Below, piece after piece: positions 5,191 to 37,091 of a DNA stretch of 37,091 nt. The notes under the pieces were generated by a model, which was not told the origin of the DNA, did no database searches, and saw nothing but the letters and a program-made list of their open reading frames with translations. The stretch is taken from IMG/VR virus record IMGVR_UViG_3300020044_007975, positions 1 through 37,091 of that record. One strand, given 5' to 3'. The first letter of the stretch is position 1, and each line of letters opens with the position of its first letter. The stretch comes from a virus (lineage: Duplodnaviria > Caudoviricetes). The translations under genes were made by a program, and so were the position numbers.

Positions 5191-5499
5191 ATGGCTAATA
5201 ATCAAAAATACACGGAAGCAAAAAGCACAGTTGCCAAACATCAGGCTTGGCGCGATGCAATTGCTACAACTCAGATAATCAATAGGTTAAATGGTTTTGC
5301 GTTGGGTGCTGGACTTGAACCAAGAACCAAAAAGCCTATTGAGATGACTCCAGCGCAAATCAAGGCGGCGGAAATATTGTTGAAAAAAACATTGCCTGAC
5401 TTAAAGCAAATTGAGCATACCGGCGAAGGTGGCGGGCCGTTGATAGTTCAGATAGTCCAATATGGGACACTGGATGAAAATCAAAACGCTAATTTGTAA
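5191..5499 (+). CDS. terS: Terminase small subunit
   Basis: MTPAQIKAAEILLKKTLPDLKQIEHTGEGGGP; directly upstream of terL. Confidence 0.85.
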   Translation: MANNQKYTEAKSTVAKHQAWRDAIATTQIINRLNGFALGAGLEPRTKKPIEMTPAQIKAAEILLKKTLPDLKQIEHTGEGGGPLIVQIVQYGTLDENQNANL

Positions 5500-6908
5500 T
5501 GCCTGTTATCCAACTGCCCAACAAATGGAGACCACGTGCCTATCAGCTTCCGTTATGGGATTACCTTGAGAAAGGTGGTCGTCATGCAGAAGCTGTGTGG
5601 CACCGATGACGAAGGGCAGGGAAAGACGACGTTTGTTTGCATTGGGCGGCCATATCAGCTTTTAAGAGGAAAGCTAACTATTGGCATTGTCTGCCTGAAG
5701 CCGCCCAAGCTAGAAAGGCGATATGGAAAGCTATTAACCCACATACCGGCATATTACGCATAGATGAGGCATTTCCGCATGAGTTGAGAAAATCAACAAA
5801 TGATACGGAAATGTTAATAACGTTTAAAAATGGTTCATCGTGGCAAGTTGTTGGCTCAGACAATTTTAATTCTTTAGTCGGTTCTGCCCCTGCTGGAATA
5901 GTTTATTCAGAATGGGCGTTGGCCAATCCCAATGCCAGAGCGTATTTACGCCCGATTATCGCAGAGAATAATGGCTGGCAGTTGTTTATCACTACTCCAA
6001 GGGGCAGAAACCACGCCCATACAACCTATAAATCAGCAAAAAATGACCCGAAAGCTTTTGCACAGATATTAACGGCAAAAGATACCGGAGTTTTTAGCGA
6101 AGAGAGGTTACAGGAAGAGCTAGGGAACTATATTTCAGAATTTGGCGAAGAATACGGGACAGCAAAGTTTGAGCAGGAATACTTATGTTCATTCTCAGCC
6201 GCCAACATTGGAGCTATTCTTGCTAGGAACGTTGACAAGCTTGAACGCATGGGCAGGATAAATGACGATGTTGCTTACGATCCGATGGGCAGCGATATAT
6301 TCATCAGTGCTGATATTGGCAGACGTGACACGGCCACTTGGTATTTTTGGCAGCCTAAAATTGGCGGGTATTCCATCATAGACCATGATTCAGGGTTTGG
6401 CATTGATGCGGAGGATTGGTGCGAAAGAATAGCGGCCAGGCTTGCAAAATATGTAAAGGACAATGGCAAAAGTGCGCTTGGTGTAATTTATTTGCCACAT
6501 GACGCGAAGGCCAAGACATTTGCGGCGAAATATTCAGCGCAAGAAGTCTTTGCCCGGTTCTTTGGCTGGGATAAGATTAGGATAACGCCTAATAGCTCAA
6601 TATCTGACAGGATTAATGCGGCGCGTACTGTCATTATGAAATGCGAATTTCATGAAACCAATTGTCAAACCGGTCTCGATGGTTTGCGTGGGTGGTCTTA
6701 TGAATACGATGAAGAAAATAAAGTGCTGAGCACATTACCGAAGCACGATTTTTTTTCACACGAAGGCGATGGATTTTCTTACGGATGCGTTATTATCAAC
6801 ACATATAAACCAGAGCCAAAGAAATCAACAAAGGTTAAATATTGGGAAAATATGACCGTTGATGAGCTTTGGGCGGAAACTAATCGAGCAAAGGAAAGTA
6901 GAATTTGA
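5499..6908 (+). CDS. terL: Terminase large subunit, interrupted by in-frame TGA at 5607-5609
   Basis: MPVIQLPNKWRPRAYQ...VWHR*RRAGKDD, Walker B-like IVYSEW, TTPRG, nuclease DIG and LPHD; TAATG overlap with terS. Confidence 0.93.
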
Positions 6909-15344: not shown

Positions 15345-15857
15345 TTGGAAACACAAGAAATTAACATTGACGAAAAACAGGAAGAGAAGTGTACGGTACG
15401 ATTCCGCCGTGATATTAACGTAGTGACTGACCTTAACGGCGACATTGTTTCGAGCGAGGAAGCCGATTGGATCACAATATGGACTCCTGGCGACCCGTTA
15501 AACATCATTGACACAATTGCTAATGATTTGCACAAGGCGCGATTCCCGAAGGCTTGGGCTGAATATCAGGGTATGCAGGGCGTAGGCAAAAATGGCACTC
15601 CAATCGATGAATGGGATATACATAAGAACATGATTAAGGTGTTCAAGGATTTGGGCTACTCAACCATTGAGCAGGTAGCAGGCGCGAGCGAGCATAGCCT
15701 AAGCCGCATACAAGGCGGGTGGGGATGGAAAACCAAGGCTAAAAACTGGCTGGAAGCTAAAAAACCGAGGCTTGATGATGAGATTGCCGCCATGAAAGCA
15801 GAAAACGCGGAATTGCGGAAAATGGTTGAGCAACTCATACAGAAAAAGGCTAGCTAA
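15345..15857 (+). CDS. Head-region hypothetical protein
   Basis: HKARFPKAW, GTPIDEW, TIEQVA; AGGAG RBS with TTG start. Confidence 0.75.
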   Translation: METQEINIDEKQEEKCTVRFRRDINVVTDLNGDIVSSEEADWITIWTPGDPLNIIDTIANDLHKARFPKAWAEYQGMQGVGKNGTPIDEWDIHKNMIKVFKDLGYSTIEQVAGASEHSLSRIQGGWGWKTKAKNWLEAKKPRLDDEIAAMKAENAELRKMVEQLIQKKAS

Positions 15858-29966: not shown

Positions 29967-30466
29967 AATATAAATCCTGTTATTTCACTTTAGCGGCTGT
30001 TTTGTGCATTAGCGGCTGTACCGAAAGCCTAAGTCTAAAACACATGGAAATAGAAACAAGGACGGAATTTCTCAACAAATATGTTTGGATAGCATCTAAA
30101 GACAGCAAGGGCAATATCATACCAGGTACGGAAAAGATTATTATTTGCGAGGGATATTTCAAGCCATTCAGCAAGGCAATGGAAGGTGCGGTATTTATTG
30201 GCAGTGCCGCTTTAATTGGTGCCGGGTTAAGTGGCTCTGGTGACAGCACTAATATTAGCAATCGGTCAACTGGTGGCAATTCAACAGGCGGTAATGCTAC
30301 TAGCCTAAGCAATGCAACTGGCGGTAATGCTGTTTCTAATAGCTTAAGTAATGCTAACAGCCTAAGTAATGCCAATGCACATAGCAGAAGCTCTATTATG
30401 CAACCTAAGCCACATTATTACCGCGAATTAAAACCACATGAGGTTAACGGTTATAAGCTAGATTAA
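29963..30466 (+). CDS. Putative lipoprotein with Ser/Asn/Gly repeats
   Basis: Lipobox-like ISGC; TGGN and SLSNA repeats. Confidence 0.65.
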   Translation: MKYKSCYFTLAAVLCISGCTESLSLKHMEIETRTEFLNKYVWIASKDSKGNIIPGTEKIIICEGYFKPFSKAMEGAVFIGSAALIGAGLSGSGDSTNISNRSTGGNSTGGNATSLSNATGGNAVSNSLSNANSLSNANAHSRSSIMQPKPHYYRELKPHEVNGYKLD

Positions 30467-30484
30467 GCTGATTATACGTCATTT

Positions 30485-30506
30485 TGTCGTATATCTTGCG
30501 TTATAC
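30485..30506 (+). mobile_element. Truncated attC-like half site at end of left array
   Basis: TTGC-GTTATAC at 30496-30506; partner arm missing. Confidence 0.45.
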
Positions 30507-30507
30507 G

Positions 30508-30696
30508 TCATGTTTTGCTGTTCACACAAAAAACAGAAACGGTGCTTTCGGCATCGCCGCTGGATGGCACTTTTATTTGTGCGCTAGAAACTGCGGCAAC
30601 ACACGTTTCCATATCTTTCATCCTAAATTCCCTTTCTATTTGTCCGCCACCAGTTGAAAGTGTGGCTATATAAATTAATAGCACTGATGTTTCCAT
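30508..30696 (-). CDS. Cassette-borne small hypothetical protein
   Basis: RBS GAGGGG supplied by attC-like site 30699-30781. Confidence 0.7.
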   Translation of the reverse strand: METSVLLIYIATLSTGGGQIEREFRMKDMETCVAAVSSAQIKVPSSGDAESTVSVFCVNSKT

Positions 30697-30698
30697 TG

Positions 30699-30781
30699 GT
30701 ATAACCCCTCATTCAACGCGACCGTTGGCCGCCAGTTCATTGTTTTGCGCCGTGCCGCGGCGCGTTAATTCTGCGTTATAC
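30699..30781 (+). mobile_element. attC: attC-like site (canonical top strand on +)
   Basis: GTATAAC-CCCTC-ATTCAACGCGA...CGCGTTAAT-TCTGC-GTTATAC with two unpaired bases. Confidence 0.85.
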
Positions 30782-30970
30782 GTCGCGTTGTTTTTGTAAA
30801 ATTTTTGAGCATTTGTCATGCTTATATTGTCGCCTGTTCTTATTGCAAACAGGGCAAATAAACGGGGTAAACACCCCTTGCCTTGTTGCAAGTTGCCGCG
30901 CTCTTTCTTCTAAAGCATCTATTTGGTCATATCTGACACTGCTGCCTGGGCTTGCGTTTCTTTTTGCCAT
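30776..30970 (-). CDS. Cassette-borne small Cys/His protein
   Basis: CPVC...HDKC; TAA stop inside core site. Confidence 0.7.
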   Translation of the reverse strand: MAKRNASPGSSVRYDQIDALEERARQLATRQGVFTPFICPVCNKNRRQYKHDKCSKILQKQRDV

Positions 30971-30983
30971 TGTTTACCCCTCT

Positions 30984-31067
30984 GTATAACCCCTCATACA
31001 AGCCGACGTATTAACGCCAGCGGTTTCGTTTGGCGCACCAAAGGCGCGGCTTAATTTTGCATTAGGA
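30984..31067 (+). mobile_element. attC: attC-like site with degenerate core (ATT for GTT)
   Basis: GTATAAC-CCCTC-ATACAAGCCGACG...CGCGGCTTAAT-TTTGC-ATTAGGA. Confidence 0.8.
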
Positions 31068-31276
31068 GTGAGTTCGTGGTGTGCTGTTACGCCAAAGAGG
31101 GATTCAGCCTTACCGTCTCCGGGGTGCCCCCTCACTTCCGCCAAGCATCCCCGCTCCCTCGGTTTCAGCACCATGCCTTTGGTGTCGCTGAGCCGCTCTG
31201 TAGCACTTGGGTACTTCGCCTCACTCTTTAAAAGGTGGCTGCTTCTAAGCCAACTTCCCACAAACTCACTCCTAAT
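31061..31276 (-). ncRNA. Structured RNA mimicking the 23S rRNA L11-binding (H43/H44) domain, with 130-nt insertion
   Basis: 19-bp closing stem enclosing GGAAGTTGGCTTAGAAGCAGCCACCTTTTAAAGAGT and GCGTAACAGCACAC. Confidence 0.85.
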
Positions 31277-31409
31277 TTTTTACTTTCTTTGCTTTTTAGT
31301 TATAAGTGCGTTACAAGATAGGCGAATTCCCAAGCTACACCAATTATCGCAAATGCTGTAGGCCAATTCATATTATCTCCTTTTGCTGTTGTGTTGCATA
31401 AACCATCAT

Positions 31410-31682
31410 TTAGAACGGCGGTTCATAAAAATTATCCGCATTATTATTTACGGGATTATTAGATTGTGCCTTATTATCCGGCGCATACATTGATACCAGT
31501 ATTTCGCTATTCCCCCTGCCAAGTTCAAGCGCACAAATTCCGGCAAGCGTAACCAAGTCAAACCGCGCATATTCGCCCTTTTGGTTTTCCTCAATCGTGC
31601 CAACTTGCTTATAACGGCCTTTTTCCTGCCCGTTACGGTCGGTGTATGTTCCTGTTTTAATGCTTAGTAGATATTTGCTCAT
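31410..31682 (-). CDS. SSB-like protein
   Basis: GTYTDRNGQEK.RY..VG, flexible tail ending EPPF; near ERF. Confidence 0.65.
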   Translation of the reverse strand: MSKYLLSIKTGTYTDRNGQEKGRYKQVGTIEENQKGEYARFDLVTLAGICALELGRGNSEILVSMYAPDNKAQSNNPVNNNADNFYEPPF

Positions 31683-31918
31683 TATTTATCCTTGTTAAGT
31701 TCAGTTAATAGAGAATCTGCCCATTTAACGGCATACACGGACATATTATCTATAGTCCCATTATCTGGGTGTGCTGTATTAGGATCTGCCGCAAATCCAG
31801 CCATTATCTGAATTGCGGCATATTCGCGCTTAGACATGCCGCGCATAGGTATTATGCCGTGGGCGGATTCTGGGGAAAACGGGAATGCTGGTTCATTTGC
31901 TTGTTTTTCTGTACTCAT
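31682..31918 (-). CDS. Conserved small phage protein
   Basis: PAFP...GMSKREYAA...ADSLL.EL pattern. Confidence 0.8.
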   Translation of the reverse strand: MSTEKQANEPAFPFSPESAHGIIPMRGMSKREYAAIQIMAGFAADPNTAHPDNGTIDNMSVYAVKWADSLLTELNKDK

Positions 31919-32658
31919 TGTTGCCCCTGTAATTCATTAAGTCTGAATGAATCTAATTTATCCGAGATTATCTGCTCAAAATCAGACTGCTGTTCAGGCG
32001 TTAGCCTTTCACAAATAGCCGTAACCTGCTCCATTGTTTCGGCTGCGTCTATTTGCTGGTCGATAGGTGTTAGTTCCAGTTTCTTTTTATCTTTCTTGAC
32101 GATTATATCCTGTGTTCTGTTTTTGGATGGTATAGACGACCAAACCGCGCTTAATTGTGCTAATGTCTGGCATCCGTAGATTGCATCAGTCCAATTAGTT
32201 TCTGATTTAGGTGTAGCTGGCGCGGGCTTTTGCAATTGCTTGTTATGGTCTAGGATAGACACCTTTTTATCATCCGCAAGCGCATCCACTTGGTCGTCTT
32301 CAGTAATTTCCATTGCCTGAACCCACAAGTAGCGTCTGACATAGGTTTGTTGCGCTCCTATGTTTTGTATTGGCGTGCCTTGTCGTAACCCTGCTTCCGC
32401 CTTAAGGCATGAAAACTCAATAGGTGCACATTCTTGTTGGGTGTCGTGAATACGCAAGTAAGCATACGATTCTCCACTAAAATCAGTAATACCAACAAGC
32501 CCTATCTCATGGAAGATATCATTTATTGCTGGCATGAAGTCTTTAAGTTCAAAATATTTAAATCCAGCCCCAAACGCATTTTTCCCTGTTTTTTGCAAGT
32601 TAGCATCATTGAGCCGCTTTCTTGCTTCTTGTAACTTTGCATAAATACTTTTATTCAT
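31915..32658 (-). CDS. erf: ERF-family ssDNA annealing protein
   Basis: KTGKN..FKYFEL.D, QNIGAQQTYVRRY. Confidence 0.85.
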   Translation of the reverse strand: MNKSIYAKLQEARKRLNDANLQKTGKNAFGAGFKYFELKDFMPAINDIFHEIGLVGITDFSGESYAYLRIHDTQQECAPIEFSCLKAEAGLRQGTPIQNIGAQQTYVRRYLWVQAMEITEDDQVDALADDKKVSILDHNKQLQKPAPATPKSETNWTDAIYGCQTLAQLSAVWSSIPSKNRTQDIIVKKDKKKLELTPIDQQIDAAETMEQVTAICERLTPEQQSDFEQIISDKLDSFRLNELQGQQ

Positions 32659-32827
32659 CGTCCGTCCTTGCGTCTGCCTTTGCGTTAATTTCATAATCCA
32701 ATGCAGCCATTTTTTCAATCCATTTTATAGCTTCATGGATAGGATTGCGTGTTTTGTGGTCAATAAGCCCAATCCTTGATAATTCACTGCGACAGCATTT
32801 GATTGCTGTTATGGCTTCTTCATTCAT
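32651..32827 (-). CDS. Hypothetical protein (58 aa)
   Basis: Manual translation MNEEAITAIK...; fills operon gap. Confidence 0.5.
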   Translation of the reverse strand: MNEEAITAIKCCRSELSRIGLIDHKTRNPIHEAIKWIEKMAALDYEINAKADARTDDE

Positions 32828-32830
32828 TGC

Positions 32831-33001
32831 TCAACTCCTGCTCACTTTTTCAGCCAATTCCAACACAAAGTTATTAACAACCAAGCTATCCATTTCTAAG
32901 GCCAATTCATGCGCCATAATCATTATCTTGGCGCGTTCTTTTGCTCGTTCTGTTTCGGCAAATTCCAGCATTTCTGCCGCATCAAATACGTTAGTTTTCA
33001 T
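32831..33001 (-). CDS. Hypothetical protein
   Basis: ATGA overlap with upstream gene. Confidence 0.6.
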   Translation of the reverse strand: MKTNVFDAAEMLEFAETERAKERAKIMIMAHELALEMDSLVVNNFVLELAEKVSRS

Positions 33002-33510
33002 AGCTCGATTTCGCCACTGTTCAATCTGGTGCAAACGTCATTGATAACTTTATCAATATGGTATGTATACAATGGGGATGGGTTTACATCGCTAATAACA
33101 ATCCATTTCCCAGAGTGGTCAAAGCATGGTCTACAATTATGCTGTCCAACTATAGGCACATATTCACCATATTCCCTAATGACCGAATTAAGCCTTGAGA
33201 CAGCACGTAAAAGCTTATGCTTTTCGATTGCGTCTTCTTCTGTCTTGCAGATCATTGAGGAATCTACAAATCCATCGAGCCACATTGTAGAATAATATGG
33301 CGCAGAGTTATCGGTAGGATAGCCCCAGCCCTTCTTTAATGGCTTCCACTTATCTTTTTGTGGCTCTTGTTTTGGCTGCTCGCGTTCCAATAGCTCTATT
33401 GTTGCATCAATGACTTCATTCAATACAGCATATATGTGACCAGTGCCAATAGCACCAGCCTGGTTTTCACTGGTTTTTAAGTTTCGTAATTTTTCGATTT
33501 TGTCTTTCAT
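32998..33510 (-). CDS. Hypothetical protein
   Basis: 170-aa ORF, ATGA overlaps. Confidence 0.75.
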   Translation of the reverse strand: MKDKIEKLRNLKTSENQAGAIGTGHIYAVLNEVIDATIELLEREQPKQEPQKDKWKPLKKGWGYPTDNSAPYYSTMWLDGFVDSSMICKTEEDAIEKHKLLRAVSRLNSVIREYGEYVPIVGQHNCRPCFDHSGKWIVISDVNPSPLYTYHIDKVINDVCTRLNSGEIEL

Positions 33511-33740
33511 CGGAATAGCCCCTTTTCAAAGGGAAATAAGCATTCGTTTAGCTTCTCATAATCGTCGTCATAATCGCCCGTAATGTCGGTACTGGCGGTT
33601 ATGATGTCGTCACCGCGCTCATCCATTAATCGCTGTTTTATGCGTGTAGAATAATTTACTGTCTTGATAGCTACTTCCTCACTATTAGCTTCAATTAAGC
33701 CGGTTGCTTGCGTGGTTAATGTGACTTCATAAATAGGCAT
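33507..33740 (-). CDS. Hypothetical protein
   Basis: MPIYEVTL...IEANSEE.A; AGGTGG RBS. Confidence 0.7.
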   Translation of the reverse strand: MPIYEVTLTTQATGLIEANSEEVAIKTVNYSTRIKQRLMDERGDDIITASTDITGDYDDDYEKLNECLFPFEKGLFR

Positions 33741-33869
33741 ATATCCACCTAACAACAGTCCAAAGACCGATAAAGCATAATCCTGAGAATATCCCGCATA
33801 GCAAAAATGCGGCAAATATATTGGCTTTTTTAGGCTTATTAATTTCTAGAAAAAATTCTTCGTCTAGCA

Positions 33870-34079
33870 TCAGTGCATCACCTTTACTTTTATGTTGCCT
33901 CTTGTTTCAGCGAATTCCAGCATCTGATATCCTATATAAAAAAGCTCCGATATTTTTTCAAAATCTTTAACAATATTGTTTGGTATCGCTTCACTAAACA
34001 ATAACACGCGCTTACCGTTAAGATAGCCATGCACCATGTGCAGATAAGTTCCGGCACTGATTTTTAAATGGTTTTCCAT
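33870..34079 (-). CDS. Hypothetical protein
   Basis: 69-aa ORF in early-left operon. Confidence 0.6.
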   Translation of the reverse strand: MENHLKISAGTYLHMVHGYLNGKRVLLFSEAIPNNIVKDFEKISELFYIGYQMLEFAETRGNIKVKVMH

Positions 34080-34200
34080 ATTTAACTATCCCATGAATCG
34101 GTTAATTGCTTAACAAGCAACAGAAAAATTCCGCAGAATGCAGACAACATGCCAAACACGCATAAGACCGGGGTTATAAATTCAAATAAGTTCATTGTCT

Positions 34201-34410
34201 TTAATAATCAAATACTGGAATTATCAACGGCAGGTGCATGTAATTTCGGAAACTACCATCAATAATTTCACAGCCATGATCGTTAAACATGTCTTCTGTC
34301 ATTAGCTCGCTGTCTTCGGCCAATTCTTGAATAGCGATCATTGCCATATTATCAGCCTCACTTCCATCGCTTGTTAGTTTAATTACGCCTTCTATAATTT
34401 CTACTTTCAT
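34201..34410 (-). CDS. Acidic hypothetical protein
   Basis: Start MKVEII after repeated leader with AGGTGAGGG. Confidence 0.65.
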   Translation of the reverse strand: MKVEIIEGVIKLTSDGSEADNMAMIAIQELAEDSELMTEDMFNDHGCEIIDGSFRNYMHLPLIIPVFDY

Positions 34411-34411
34411 G

Positions 34412-34788
34412 CCCTCACCTTTGGGTAAAATTAAATGTTCCTGAAAATATCTTTGCTTCCACTCCGTCAATACCGATGAGTCGAAACCGAAATAGTGCTA
34501 TCAGTCACGCTTTCAACGTGCTGCAAATGCTCCTCTGCCGATTTCATTTCTTTGCGCGCCTGCTCTGCCTTCAGGCGTAGGCACGTTATTGCGTACTCTT
34601 TCGCAGAATCGAAATCCTCAAAATACCTAACGCCATCGGACCCTTTCGAAACCCGCTAACCTCCAATAAAAACCGATGCGTCAGTAACCTTTTCCGCTAC
34701 GACTTTGACAAACTCGAAAGTCCATCGAGACTTAACGCGCCACACGTCAACCATACTGCTCCCTCACTTTTGGGTAAAATTAAATGTT
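34412..34788 (-). repeat. 28-bp leader direct repeat
   Basis: AACATTTAATTTTACCCAAARGTGAGGG at 34412-34439 and 34761-34788 (27/28). Confidence 0.92.
34467..34754 (-). pseudogene. 95-codon gene with in-frame TAG at codon 33
   Basis: MVDVWRVK...FIGG*RVSKGSDGVRYFEDFDSAKEY...; GAGGGAG RBS; TAG at 34656-34658. Confidence 0.7.
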
Positions 34789-34793
34789 GTGTA

Positions 34794-34876
34794 AGTATTG
34801 CACGTAAGCAATATCATGTCAAGCTATATCGTGAAATATTATTGACTTGACAAATTCCAACAATTGCATATATGCT
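34794..34876. promoter_or_regulatory. Divergent early promoters with operator
   Basis: Leftward TTGACA (34817-34822)-17-AATACT over TATTGC-N6-GCAATA; rightward TTGACA (34847)-18-TATGCT. Confidence 0.7.
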
Positions 34877-34883
34877 ATATGTT

Positions 34884-35069
34884 ATGAATATACAAACACT
34901 GCTAGAGAACCTATCTCAACACCTGTCTAATCGCAAAATTGCCTCTTTAGTTGGGGTTCATCCTACAACTATAGGCAGGTTACGCACCGGTAAAGTTAAC
35001 AGTGACAGAGCATCGTCTAAAACTATACGAGCTTTAGAACTACTGGCAATAAATCTAGGGGTGAAGTGA
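34884..35069 (+). CDS. Cro/CI-like HTH regulator, probably leaderless
   Basis: LSNRKIASLVGVHPTTIGRLRTG; ATG 7 nt after -10 box. Confidence 0.85.
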   Translation: MNIQTLLENLSQHLSNRKIASLVGVHPTTIGRLRTGKVNSDRASSKTIRALELLAINLGVK

Positions 35070-35112
35070 TGAAGATTGCAGGACAAGACCATGCCACGCT
35101 TGGGAAGCTGCA

Positions 35113-35271
35113 ATGAACTTACATAAATACACGGATAAGCCGATGTCTGTTACCGATTTGTTCAAAGAAACTATCTTCTTTTGTGACAATAAGAAATCTG
35201 CCTGGAAATGCGCGAAATCAACTTTTAAAGACATAACCAAGTTGAGCAAAGCACTAAAGCATAGGTTATGA
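35113..35271 (+). CDS. Hypothetical protein (52 aa)
   Basis: Manual translation MNLHKYTDKP... Confidence 0.4.
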   Translation: MNLHKYTDKPMSVTDLFKETIFFCDNKKSAWKCAKSTFKDITKLSKALKHRL

Positions 35272-35287
35272 CGAACAGTTACTTACC

Positions 35288-35410
35288 GTATAACGCAAAA
35301 GTAAGATGACCGCCTGGAGACGAGGATAAATATCACTATGACGGCAAACCAAGACACCAGTGAGCAAATCTGTGTTACGGAGGCGGGTCAGCTTGACTGC
35401 CGGGTTAGGC
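35288..35410 (-). mobile_element. attC: attC-like site
   Basis: + strand GTATAAC-GCAAA-AGTAAGATGACCGCC...GGCGGGTCAGCTTGACT-GCCGG-GTTAGGC. Confidence 0.8.
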
Positions 35411-35652
35411 CGATTGCAACTGGCTATGTTAATTACGATGTTAGGGTTAATTGCCCTAATTGCAAAAAAGACATTTATTTAAACCAATACCCGTACAACG
35501 ATGAAGAAACCGATTTTTCATTGACGGATGACGAACTTGGCTTGGCGCTTTTTGGAACAAAAACGAAGCCTGCGACTTGGGATAATTTTGAAATTGAATA
35601 CCAGTGTTGCAAATGCAGAAAACCGTTTGTATTAACTGGTATCGAAATATGA
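35338..35652 (+). CDS. Cassette-borne zinc-ribbon protein
   Basis: CPNC and CCKC; ATG inside attC loop. Confidence 0.75.
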   Translation: MTANQDTSEQICVTEAGQLDCRVRPIATGYVNYDVRVNCPNCKKDIYLNQYPYNDEETDFSLTDDELGLALFGTKTKPATWDNFEIEYQCCKCRKPFVLTGIEI

Positions 35653-35654
35653 CT

Positions 35655-35685
35655 AGCGGCCGTCCGCTGCAAAACAAGGTTAGGC
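35655..35685 (-). mobile_element. attC-like half site
   Basis: GTCCGCTGCA-AAACAAG-GTTAGGC; other arm not found. Confidence 0.5.
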
Positions 35686-35707
35686 CTGCGGGCCGGAGAG
35701 AAAGACG

Positions 35708-35902
35708 ATGCACCTCAAGATTTCTGGCGTTCGCGTCATGTTCCAAGCCGTCGAATCGTTCGCCTTTGACGAGGCCGCTTGCGAACTGGTGGTGAGAACA
35801 GTCAGCGGCGCAGAACATCGGCACTCGGTGCTGGACAAGGCAGAGGCCGACAAGATCGCAGACGCGCTTATTGAGCGTATGTCGCTGTGTGATTCGTTGT
35901 GA
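35708..35902 (+). CDS. Cassette-borne GC-rich hypothetical protein
   Basis: GGAG RBS; bounded by GTTAGGC and GCCTAAC. Confidence 0.7.
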   Translation: MHLKISGVRVMFQAVESFAFDEAACELVVRTVSGAEHRHSVLDKAEADKIADALIERMSLCDSL

Positions 35903-35903
35903 T

Positions 35904-35987
35904 GCCTAACGCAGAATTAAGCCGCGCTGCACCGGCGCGAAACGAAGCCGCCGACGGCAAAGCGTCGGCTTGAATGAGGGGTTATAC
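35904..35987 (-). mobile_element. attC: attC-like site
   Basis: Minus strand GTATAAC-CCCTC-ATTCAAGCCGACGC...GCGCGGCTTAATTC-TGC-GTTAGGC, close to aadA-type attC as recalled. Confidence 0.9.
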
Positions 35988-36182
35988 GTGAATGATAATT
36001 GGATACTTGGTTACGTTATTGAGTTTTCTGACGGCGGTGAGCCTGAAATTCAAATTTTACACAAGGGGTCAGAAGAAAGTTGCGAAAAAATGGCTAATTT
36101 ACTGCCAGCCGTGTCATATAGCGGCGACAGGCCAAACCCAAGTGCTTCGCTTAGATGGATGCCTGTTGGAAGTGACGGATAA
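35988..36182 (+). CDS. Cassette-borne hypothetical protein
   Basis: GTG start after attC-supplied GAGGGG; TAA in next core site. Confidence 0.7.
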   Translation: MNDNWILGYVIEFSDGGEPEIQILHKGSEESCEKMANLLPAVSYSGDRPNPSASLRWMPVGSDG

Positions 36183-36262
36183 CGCAAAGCTAAGGGGCGC
36201 GATTGATGAGTGAAGAAACACCACAAACGGTGGGCGCGTCCCACTTGAGCGACGGGTTAGGC
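36177..36262 (-). mobile_element. attC: attC-like site
   Basis: + strand GGATAAC-GCAAA-GCTAAGGGGCGCG...CGCGTCCCACTTGAGC-GACGG-GTTAGGC. Confidence 0.85.
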
Positions 36263-36266
36263 TGAA

Positions 36267-36443
36267 ATGATAAGATTTTGTGACGAATGTGGTTTGCCTT
36301 TGAATAATGAAGAAATTGAATATTACGAGACACGGTGCGAACAGTGCGAGCGGGAATGGCTTGAGGACATTACAGCTTGGCGCAAAGGAGCTAAAAATGA
36401 CAAATTTGACAAGCTTTATTCGATTGCCCGGATTTTAAACTGA
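36267..36443 (+). CDS. Cassette-borne small Zn-finger protein (58 aa)
   Basis: MIRFCDECG...RCEQCE. Confidence 0.65.
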   Translation: MIRFCDECGLPLNNEEIEYYETRCEQCEREWLEDITAWRKGAKNDKFDKLYSIARILN

Positions 36444-36550
36444 TGAACGAATTACAAAAAGAGCTGTGCATAGGTTTTACTTTTGGGTTTATAGCCGCTT
36501 CTGGGCTATTTTTGATTGCCTTGGTATTTTTTACCGATTGTGCCGCCTAA
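36443..36550 (+). CDS. Small membrane peptide (35 aa)
   Basis: TGATG overlap; TAA in GCCTAAC. Confidence 0.5.
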   Translation: MNELQKELCIGFTFGFIAASGLFLIALVFFTDCAA

Positions 36551-36631
36551 CGCAAAGCTAACCGGGCGCGACAATGACGACAATTAAACAAGACAATGCT
36601 TCAAGCGCTCCGGTTGAGCGACGGGTTAGGC
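36545..36631 (-). mobile_element. attC: attC-like site
   Basis: + strand GCCTAAC-GCAAA-GCTAACCGGGCGC...GCGCTCCGGTTGAGC-GACGG-GTTAGGC. Confidence 0.9.
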
Positions 36632-36876
36632 TGGGAATGATTAATAAAAGAATTAAAATTATTGCAGCGATAATTTATGTTGTTGTTGCAATTGTAACAT
36701 TCGGCGATTCTGCCGTATTTTTTGAGAAACGAGGCATTGCGGAAGTTGAATATTGTCGCGCTAACGCCGTTAATCCGATGTGGTGTGATTTAAAAAAGTC
36801 GATGGGTTTTGCCGCATTAGCATCAACTGTTGCTTGGCCTTTTTACTGGTCATACAGGTTTGCATACGACGGATAA
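36574..36876 (+). CDS. Cassette-borne two-TM membrane protein
   Basis: Two hydrophobic helices, WPFYWSY; start in attC loop or at internal MINK. Confidence 0.7.
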   Translation: MTTIKQDNASSAPVERRVRLGMINKRIKIIAAIIYVVVAIVTFGDSAVFFEKRGIAEVEYCRANAVNPMWCDLKKSMGFAALASTVAWPFYWSYRFAYDG

Positions 36877-36959
36877 CGCAGAGCTAACCGGGCGCGGCCA
36901 GGAAAGCTAAACAATGAAACCGTACTATAACCGCGCTCCGGTTGAGCGCACTGTTAGGC
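36871..36959 (-). mobile_element. attC: attC-like site
   Basis: + strand GGATAAC-GCAGA-GCTAACCGGGCGCGG...CCGCGCTCCGGTTGAGC-GCACT-GTTAGGC. Confidence 0.9.
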
Positions 36960-36973
36960 ATAGTTTTAAAAAG

Positions 36974-37091
36974 CAACATATCATCTAGCGGCCTAGGAAT
37001 ACTGTTTACTGGGAAATGCGGATTAAGCAACCGCCGTAGTCGTCTAAAGCCTAGGGCACCCGACCACAGAAACGCAGGTTCGAATCCTGCT
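36974..37091 (+). ncRNA. tRNA-like RNA with about 60-nt insert replacing the anticodon loop (3'-truncated)
   Basis: D-arm-like ATCTAGCGGCCTAGGA, CTGT/ACAG stem, perfect T-arm GCAGG-TTCGAAT-CCTGC. Confidence 0.7.

Follow-up and report, generated by a model that had tools for sequence, protein, structure and literature searches.

The attC sites and their genes

The linear virus contig IMGVR_UViG_3300020044_007975 (37,091 nucleotides (nt); this whole stretch, G000, is called the window) carries two arrays of small open reading frames (ORFs) that are separated by attC sites like those of integrons. Altogether, the window holds seven full sites, five on the plus strand (S1 to S5) and two on the minus strand of the left arm (SL1 and SL2), plus two half sites (Table 1). 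CheckV estimates a completeness of 100%, there is no terminal repeat, and among the 62 ORFs scanned there are PHROG matches to terminase, portal, capsid, tail, endolysin, NinB, methylase, a RecA-dependent nuclease and an Erf-like protein. Two predicted promoters diverge at 34794-34876, and one attC array lies in each of the two predicted early operons.

The sites S1 to S5 all possess YAAC/GTT cores and two 5-nt spacers each. In the window sites, six to seven of seven L box positions pair, and an extra base is found at position 4 of the 8-nt L box in six of the seven. The core sequences RYYYAAC and GTTRRRY with their AAC/GTT triplets are present in 6/7 sites, the exception being SL1, which is likely no longer cut at its first box, since this box reads TAAT. 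An initial annotation of this DNA, made from the letters alone, had described five full sites of 84-123 nt and one half site with AAC/GTT cores, 5-nt spacers and extra unpaired bases, and all of this is borne out; SL1, SL2, the terminal half site in the left arm and the inverted orientation described below were absent from it. The stems show compensatory changes, with swaps between G-C, A-T, C-G and T-A at positions 1, 2 and 6-8. The 9-mer CTAGCGGCC, which opens the half site (35653-35661), recurs after S5 (36983-36991).

A two-arm pattern written from the window sites matched five times in the window and not at all in 100 shuffles, and a profile hidden Markov model (HMM) recovered seven sites in the window and none in ten reversed genomes. 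For all seven window sites, a covariance model built from 47 sites of bacterial arrays yielded coding-strand scores of 31-68 bits; it gave nine matches in all, two of them weak ones on the opposite strand, and assigned 19.6 bits to the published TJE1 attC2. The fold energy z ranges from -0.62 (S1) to -2.69 (S4), with only 2/7 sites below -2, which is modest against chance. The pattern also matched at least 125 loci in viral contigs (an estimated ~140 stretches), 51 loci in cellular genomes, many of them from Methylococcales and Betaproteobacteria, and 122 in metagenomes, while a narrow S4/S5 pattern matched no viral contig. YAAC is present in 189/189 viral sites, all of which had been selected by pattern.

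Having two or more attC sites within a few kb and no intI close by, the array is by definition a cluster of attC sites lacking an integron integrase (CALIN), and it works like an integron cassette array. It does not qualify as a complete integron, since no match to the tyrosine recombinase family PF00589 was found in the genome. No attI was recognised either; by eye, nothing after S5 resembles the attI region of the host locus L141. The left terminal half site at 30488-30506 resembles an attC remnant.

The units between the sites differ in composition, as had been proposed before, with a GC content from 0.37 to 0.56. Complementarity of the cores at the two ends of one unit likewise holds as first described: it is perfect for 35679/35904 and 36256/36545 (7/7 each), reaches 6/7 for 35981/36177 and drops to 5/7 for 36625/36871 in the last unit. 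The gene c1 has no family over cut-off in PHROG, Pfam or the ESM Atlas, c3 and c5 have no family match in PHROG or Pfam, and c4 matches Pfam DZR with an E-value of 3e-4, below the cut-off. Searches of viral contigs with c1, c2 and Erf as queries gave 4, 1 and 1 weak loci, which were not used.

Table 1. Coordinates of the features in the window and, in the last two rows, in host integron loci. Bit scores are those of the covariance model; crossover positions are predicted.
Feature	Position	Strand	Remarks
S1, 123 nt	35288..35410	+ (bottom strand)	38 bits; crossover 35293/35294; loop with GAGG and ATG (35338) of c1
Half site	35653..35685	+	L'' arm, spacer and R'' box only; recombining R' half missing (sequence)
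S2, 84 nt	35904..35987	+	58 bits; crossover 35909/35910; spacer GAGGGG precedes GTG at 35988
S3, 86 nt	36177..36262	+	59 bits; crossover 36182/36183
S4, 87 nt	36545..36631	+	68 bits; fold z -2.69; crossover 36550/36551; loop with in-frame ATG at 36574
S5, 89 nt	36871..36959	+	65 bits; crossover 36876/36877; AGGA and ATG (36914) begin a 24-codon ORF
SL1, left arm	30984..31067	-	31 bits; first box TAAT
SL2, left arm	30699..30781	-	51 bits
Terminal half site, left arm	30488..30506	-	R' box, spacer, degenerate L' (sequence)
c0, fixed 52-aa ORF ahead of array	35113..35271	+
c1, 104 aa, four-cysteine protein	35338..35652	+	first 24 codons inside S1; no in-frame ATG after S1
c2, 64 aa	35708..35902	+	GC 0.56
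c3, about 64 aa from GTG	35988..36182	+	TAA stop in first box of S3; unit 35910-36182
c4, two genes: 58-aa zinc-ribbon-like and 35-aa hydrophobic ORF	36267..36550	+	unit 36183-36550
c5, 100 aa, S4-derived leader	36574..36876	+	second in-frame ATG 36637; unit 36551-36876
l1, 64 aa, left arm	30776..30970	-	phrog_6887, E 2.6e-9; flanking boxes 7/7 complementary
l2, 62 aa, left arm	30508..30696	-	replaced in one X1 contig
Erf-like single-strand annealing protein	31915..32718	-	Pfam ERF 37.7 bits, over cut-off
Leftward early promoter (predicted), TTGACA-17-AATACT	34794..34822	-	consensus scan; function inferred
Rightward early promoter (predicted), TTGACA-18-TATGCT	34847..34876	+	consensus scan; function inferred
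Small helix-turn-helix gene, Cro-like position	34872..35069	+	Pfam HTH_38 E 7e-5, below curated cut-off
Two inverted phage-type cassettes in L171 (G073:C46)	5488-5730, 15377-15604		Methylobacter integron by intI
Third inverted cassette candidate, L141	5409-5636		beside intI; no family match

Orientation of the genes

The genes lie on the attC sites' bottom strand, i.e. the recombining strand, and are inverted with respect to those of host integrons and of the TJE1 array. On the strand where NNNTAAC is read first, 184/189 viral sites have a G as their extra base, placed in the arm opposite AAC. In this register, the pairing over ten stem positions amounts to 0.84, compared to 0.50 if the extra base is placed in the other arm and to at most 0.70 with shuffled partners (1000 shuffles). 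As the accessible text of PMC5027507 defines the bottom strand by the extrahelical G opposite AAC, the coding-type strand is the bottom strand. In a by-eye comparison, the coding-type strand also reads like the bottom strand of the aadA7 site in Table S3 of PMC9892861, it folds lower than its complement in 7/7 window sites, and it is the strand of intI, upstream of this gene, in all eight intI loci with sites among the 12 examined.

The coding-type strand holds the longest ORF in 78/92 viral units compared to 22/74 cellular units. The call from the longest flanking ORF, which left 67 viral sites ambiguous and labelled 23 as 'anti', is unreliable in GC-rich loci, and PHROG matches were therefore used for the orientation. 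Such matches were obtained for 20/70 ORFs of viral units on the coding-type strand and for 0/67 on the opposite strand. In cellular arrays, matches fell on the opposite strand in 9/45 and on the same strand in 5/45 cases, and four of these five are carried by L128 and L144, which we infer to be phage DNA. Thus, the canonical arrangement of a top-strand gene followed by its own attC does not apply here; instead, a bottom-strand gene is preceded by its own attC body. Since the genes are inverted relative to attC, the unit has to be defined as a site body together with the downstream gene.

Translation signals within the sites

Many viral sites supply a predicted translation start, that is a Shine-Dalgarno (SD) motif and a start codon, for the gene downstream. 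An SD motif with an ATG in the loop is present on the coding-type strand of 69/191 viral sites and on the other strand of only 3/191, whereas cellular sites show it in 6/114 cases on each of the two strands. In 56/191 viral sites compared to none, an in-frame leader extends 30 codons or more beyond the site, and GTT is read as valine in 37 of these 56. In six of the 191 viral sites, S2 and SL2 included, the last spacer could act as the SD motif of a start codon immediately behind the site, and this was seen in none of the 114 cellular sites. Homologues of c1 in L078 and in P0001-P0005 keep the core of the protein and differ in their attC-derived leaders. In practice, the proteins predicted by gene callers for these arrays bear N- and C-terminal peptides that derive from attC.

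Exchange of units among related phages

Relatives of the array were found among the contigs of three metagenome runs, all aquatic and from a single study, and their identity with the array breaks off at the first boxes of S1 and S2. Some are identical over 35203-35299, i.e. from within c0 into S1, and then enter another attC body; others are identical over 35290-35578 or 35290-35380 and have a different sequence in front, with the break between 35289 and 35290. At the end of c2, identity extends to 35913 in S2 and is followed by another attC body, and one relative (run X3) joins other sequence at 35656 in the half site. In the left arm, one X1 contig diverges beyond 30778 and has 30507-30698, containing l2, replaced. 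Gain and loss of units at the AAC box, which the initial annotation had put forward for comparison, is hence what the relatives display. Runs X1 and X3 have 36261 joined to 35900; an excision circle was considered for this and ruled out, since 223 other letters lie between the two positions. The genes c3, c4 and c5 are without cover in the three runs, which is no proof of their absence.

The same picture emerges from all 446 sites, among which we collected 46 pairs sharing one flank only, after dropping flanks under 70 nt. The downstream gene plus the site body is shared by 32 pairs, the upstream gene with differing bodies by seven and the downstream gene with differing bodies by another seven, and no pair shares the upstream gene plus the body. 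The 18 pairs between viral sites, some of which stem from one cassette, fall into the same four classes with 9, 6, 3 and 0 cases. Exchange at the first box fits 39/46 pairs and 15/18 viral-viral pairs, so that in most cases the site body moves together with its downstream gene. The reverse assignment, of a site to its upstream gene, was rejected (0/46 pairs); L070/L108, a candidate for this class, turned out to be an artefact of a short flank. In 13 pairs with a shared downstream side, identity ends 3-6 bases before the C of AAC, in five with a shared upstream side it ends 2-6 bases after this C, and the tightest pairs bound the breakpoints to -3..+1 around it. In L119/L120, which lie on one contig, and in L071 (573 and 3471), the same cassette end is present twice within one phage contig, and these repeated ends suggest a duplication during shuffling.

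In 43/64 short and 20/33 long viral units, the four outer bases of the boxes on either side of a gene show perfect complementarity, compared to shuffle means of 13.0 and 4.1 and maxima of 27 and 12 in 5000 shuffles; in cellular arrays, the fraction is 53/74. Within one site, such complementarity is found in only 14/51 short and 4/28 long cases.

These data bear on two explanations that do without an active integrase. The array could be a frozen piece of a host integron that was captured once and is no longer rearranged. Signs of decay are indeed visible in the two half sites, in the TAAT core of SL1 and in the weakly folding S1, and S5 is 87% like host sites. However, the genes are inverted compared to host arrays, arrays exist in both arms, and the cassette cargo of the relatives is of the phage type (methylases, HNH, RNA ligase and Lar-like proteins). 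Identity of relatives over 97-289 nt on one side of a site and difference on the other largely refutes this explanation, which we consider highly improbable.

Alternatively, sites that derive from integrons might now be shuffled by homologous or micro-homologous recombination via the Erf-like protein, without IntI. In agreement with this, an Erf gene is present in the genome, the site families are 80-99% alike between phages, and 7/46 pairs as well as the c1 homologues exchange at the second box. Furthermore, the accessible text of Qi et al. (PMC9892861) raises off-target homologous recombination for phage arrays. Against it, exchange is lopsided towards the first box (39 vs 7) although both ends are conserved. 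The extrahelical G has been kept nearly throughout, and annealing would not maintain a complementarity that is higher across genes than within sites (43/64 vs 14/51). Shuffling by Erf in place of IntI therefore appears unlikely to us.

The recombinase and the host

The initial annotation had noted that no tyrosine recombinase is encoded in the window and had suggested that a host integrase acts in trans. The first statement is confirmed, as neither PF00589 nor PF00239 (resolvase) gave a match in six frames of the genome. PF00589 is also missing from 5/6 relatives with direct terminal repeats. Given this lack of a recombinase in the genome and in these relatives, host IntI acting in trans is the best reading, and the second statement thus stands in this respect, whereas the gene orientation and the definition of the unit had to be changed. 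We estimate the probability that host IntI excises and inserts the cassettes of both phage arrays at roughly 75%.

PF00589 matched 10 of the 50 attC-bearing viral records searched (of about 116), including 3 of the 14 that are at least 90% complete, and none of the ten proteins passes the integron-integrase model TIGR02249 (best 52 bits, cut-off 265). The arrays L078 (G043), L077/L169 (G042) and L007 (G003) end beside a phage integrase gene encoding 373-382 aa, which is not IntI. By contrast, IntI was found over cut-off in 22/28 cellular genomes with sites of the same family. The S5 body is 99% identical to a site in L015 and 87-88% identical to sites of Methylobacter and Methylococcaceae (87% for the integrons L141 and L171), the S3 body is 90% identical to a site in L073, and a contig of a Methylococcales bin has sites that are 83-86% like S2, SL1 and SL2. 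A Methylobacter array (L171/L331) that ends 460 nt from intI contains two inverted cassettes whose sites have an ATG in the loop, with a match to phrog_1578 in one of them, and L141 contains a third candidate (Table 1). The host is thus probably an integron bearer from the Methylococcales. Sites of ordinary host cassettes that are 85-87% like S5 (L141 6139-6227; L171 4192-4280 and 9576-9664) read AATAAA where S5 has AATGAA, as if one template had served both pools.

The enzyme might also be an IntI-like protein of a helper, such as a satellite, a co-infecting phage or a plasmid, or an unrecognised phage protein, in place of the chromosomal IntI. The window is a linear contig without terminal repeat, so a piece may be missing, and many of its ORFs have no family. 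On the other hand, CheckV gives a completeness of 100%, PF00589 and PF00239 have no match, and the complete relatives G011 and G020 possess 8 and 9 sites, those of G020 in two divergent arms as in the window, without any PF00589 match. Since moreover 0/10 viral tyrosine recombinases pass TIGR02249 and inverted cassettes adjoin a chromosomal intI, a helper or an unrecognised phage enzyme is quite improbable.

Several observations weigh against the action of host IntI as proposed here. The fold z is weak for S1, SL1, S3, S2 and S5, and the covariance model is not independent of the window, because its training sites came from the window-seeded pattern and HMM. By a crude measure, 14/92 viral units have a longer ORF on the other strand. 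The evidence for exchange consists of contigs, not reads, and no circular junction was seen among them; besides, pairs with a shared downstream side cannot place the crossover to the base, because TAAC is conserved in all sites. In 7/46 pairs (3/18 viral) and in the c1 homologues P0002-P0005, one gene is combined with different bodies, and exchange at the first box alone is therefore insufficient. The search for recombinases covered only 50 of the roughly 116 viral records with attC sites, and the capsid protein matches only 2/301 Methylococcales genomes, with 42% at best. The c1 homologues with their differing leaders also show that a gene can change its body, be it by exchange at the second box, by homologous recombination or by repeated cassette making.

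Proposed mechanism

Upon infection of an integron-bearing host, IntI would recombine the folded bottom strands of two sites between AA and C. A reaction of attC with attC is proposed, since no attI was recognised in the phage; strand and cut site follow the accessible text of PMC5027507. The cassette would consist of C, spacer, L', loop, L'', spacer and R'', followed by the gene and by NNNTAA, and it would be exchanged between TAA and C. With a start ahead of the gene and a stop supplied by the core, such a cassette could be expressed from the early promoter of the phage wherever it is inserted. Expression of intI is induced by the SOS response. As a minority route, the body may be swapped at the second box, which top-strand cutting at R'' may explain.

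Once inserted into a host integron, a phage cassette would point away from the promoter of the host cassettes, and host cassettes that enter a phage array would lie antisense to the transcription of the phage. Owing to this inverted geometry, we infer that one enzyme serves two pools, each of which is mostly silent in the array of the other. A more far-reaching idea is that phages run a mirror-image cassette pool on host IntI, with hairpins remade into gene starts that offer a ribosome site, an ATG and a leader peptide, with phage genes turned into cassettes, two-way traffic with host integrons and an inversion that silences the opposite cargo, including anti-phage cassettes of the host; a gene with several leaders would then represent cassette creation caught in the act. 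This remains tentative, and we rate its chance at somewhat less than even.

A DHH phosphoesterase gene and a methylase gene are free in the window and boxed as cassettes in L061, L073 and L015. Since there are genes that occur both free and boxed, and one gene with several attC leaders, the question of how cassettes are made becomes testable.

Other features of the genome

The phage may be lytic, given that no integrase was found. Helicase, primase, polymerase and a CI-like repressor were not detected among the 62 ORFs scanned by PHROG, despite the CheckV completeness of 100%. ARAGORN reported no gene in the window; at 37030-37091, there is a tRNA-like sequence with a T-arm that is interrupted by the contig end, for which ARAGORN likewise reports nothing. 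A 28-nt direct repeat (96%) with a motif like a ribosome site is located at 34412-34439 and 34761-34788. The regions 34199-34762 and 33002-33530 are absent from relatives, and the left arm therefore varies without attC sites, too.

Just upstream of SL1, a minus-strand stretch of 37 nt (31222-31260) is 92% like E. coli 23S rRNA, in a region that we take to be the L11-binding one. It is also present in 42 GenBank phage records, mostly without annotation, and is possibly a phage RNA that mimics rRNA. Rfam gave no match at the gathering score in the window and none of meaning at E-values up to 5 in 30400-37091. A BLAST search of the array against GenBank phages gave no match.

Comparison with known integron systems

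The occurrence of attC clusters without IntI in phages is already published (Qi et al. 2023, PMC9892861). That report counts 17 CALINs in 10,705 genomes and describes that IntI1 recombined five of six tested phage sites. Inverted phage cassettes were not found in the literature searched, with subscription journals and bioRxiv supplements outside its scope, and they are not described in the accessible parts of PMC13323075, PMC5737381, PMC5371416, PMC4889954, PMC5027507 and 10.1101/2022.02.06.479319. A BLAST search of S2 against plasmids for an annotated aadA site gave only chance matches.

According to the accessible portions of 10.1101/2024.07.02.601686 and 10.1101/2024.07.02.601719, integron cassettes include anti-phage defences. 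If the proposed mechanism is true, a bacterial adaptation machine that carries anti-phage cassettes also serves phages for the shuffling of their accessory genes. Expression of integron cassettes is believed to require the ordinary orientation (PMC5027507, accessible text), and a whole cassette class built in reverse is unexpected.

Like the phage CALINs of Qi et al., the window has several attC sites between small ORFs, no intI and a methylase among the cargo, so far as their accessible text allows the comparison. In the TJE1 array, however, the genes are on the top strand in the ordinary way, whereas they are on the bottom strand in the window. Cassette polymorphism, inversion or translation signals within the sites, all of which the window family shows, are not described in the accessible text of PMC9892861.

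With the sedentary chromosomal integrons of Methylococcales and Betaproteobacteria, as presented in the accessible part of Cury et al. 2016 (PMC4889954), the phage array shares the anatomy and the sequence family of attC, the exchange at the first box and the complementarity of the cores. It differs from them by the absence of intI and of a recognised attI, the inverted genes, the shorter cassettes, the start signals inside the site and the predicted expression from phage promoters. A reversed orientation as such is also known from top-strand attC recombination (Nivina et al. 2016, PMC5027507) and from integrons with an inverted integrase (PMC4889954). In these cases, to the extent that the accessible texts describe them, either the whole cassette with its attC or intI is reversed, whereas in the phage all sites point the same way and the reversal concerns only the gene inside its cassette.

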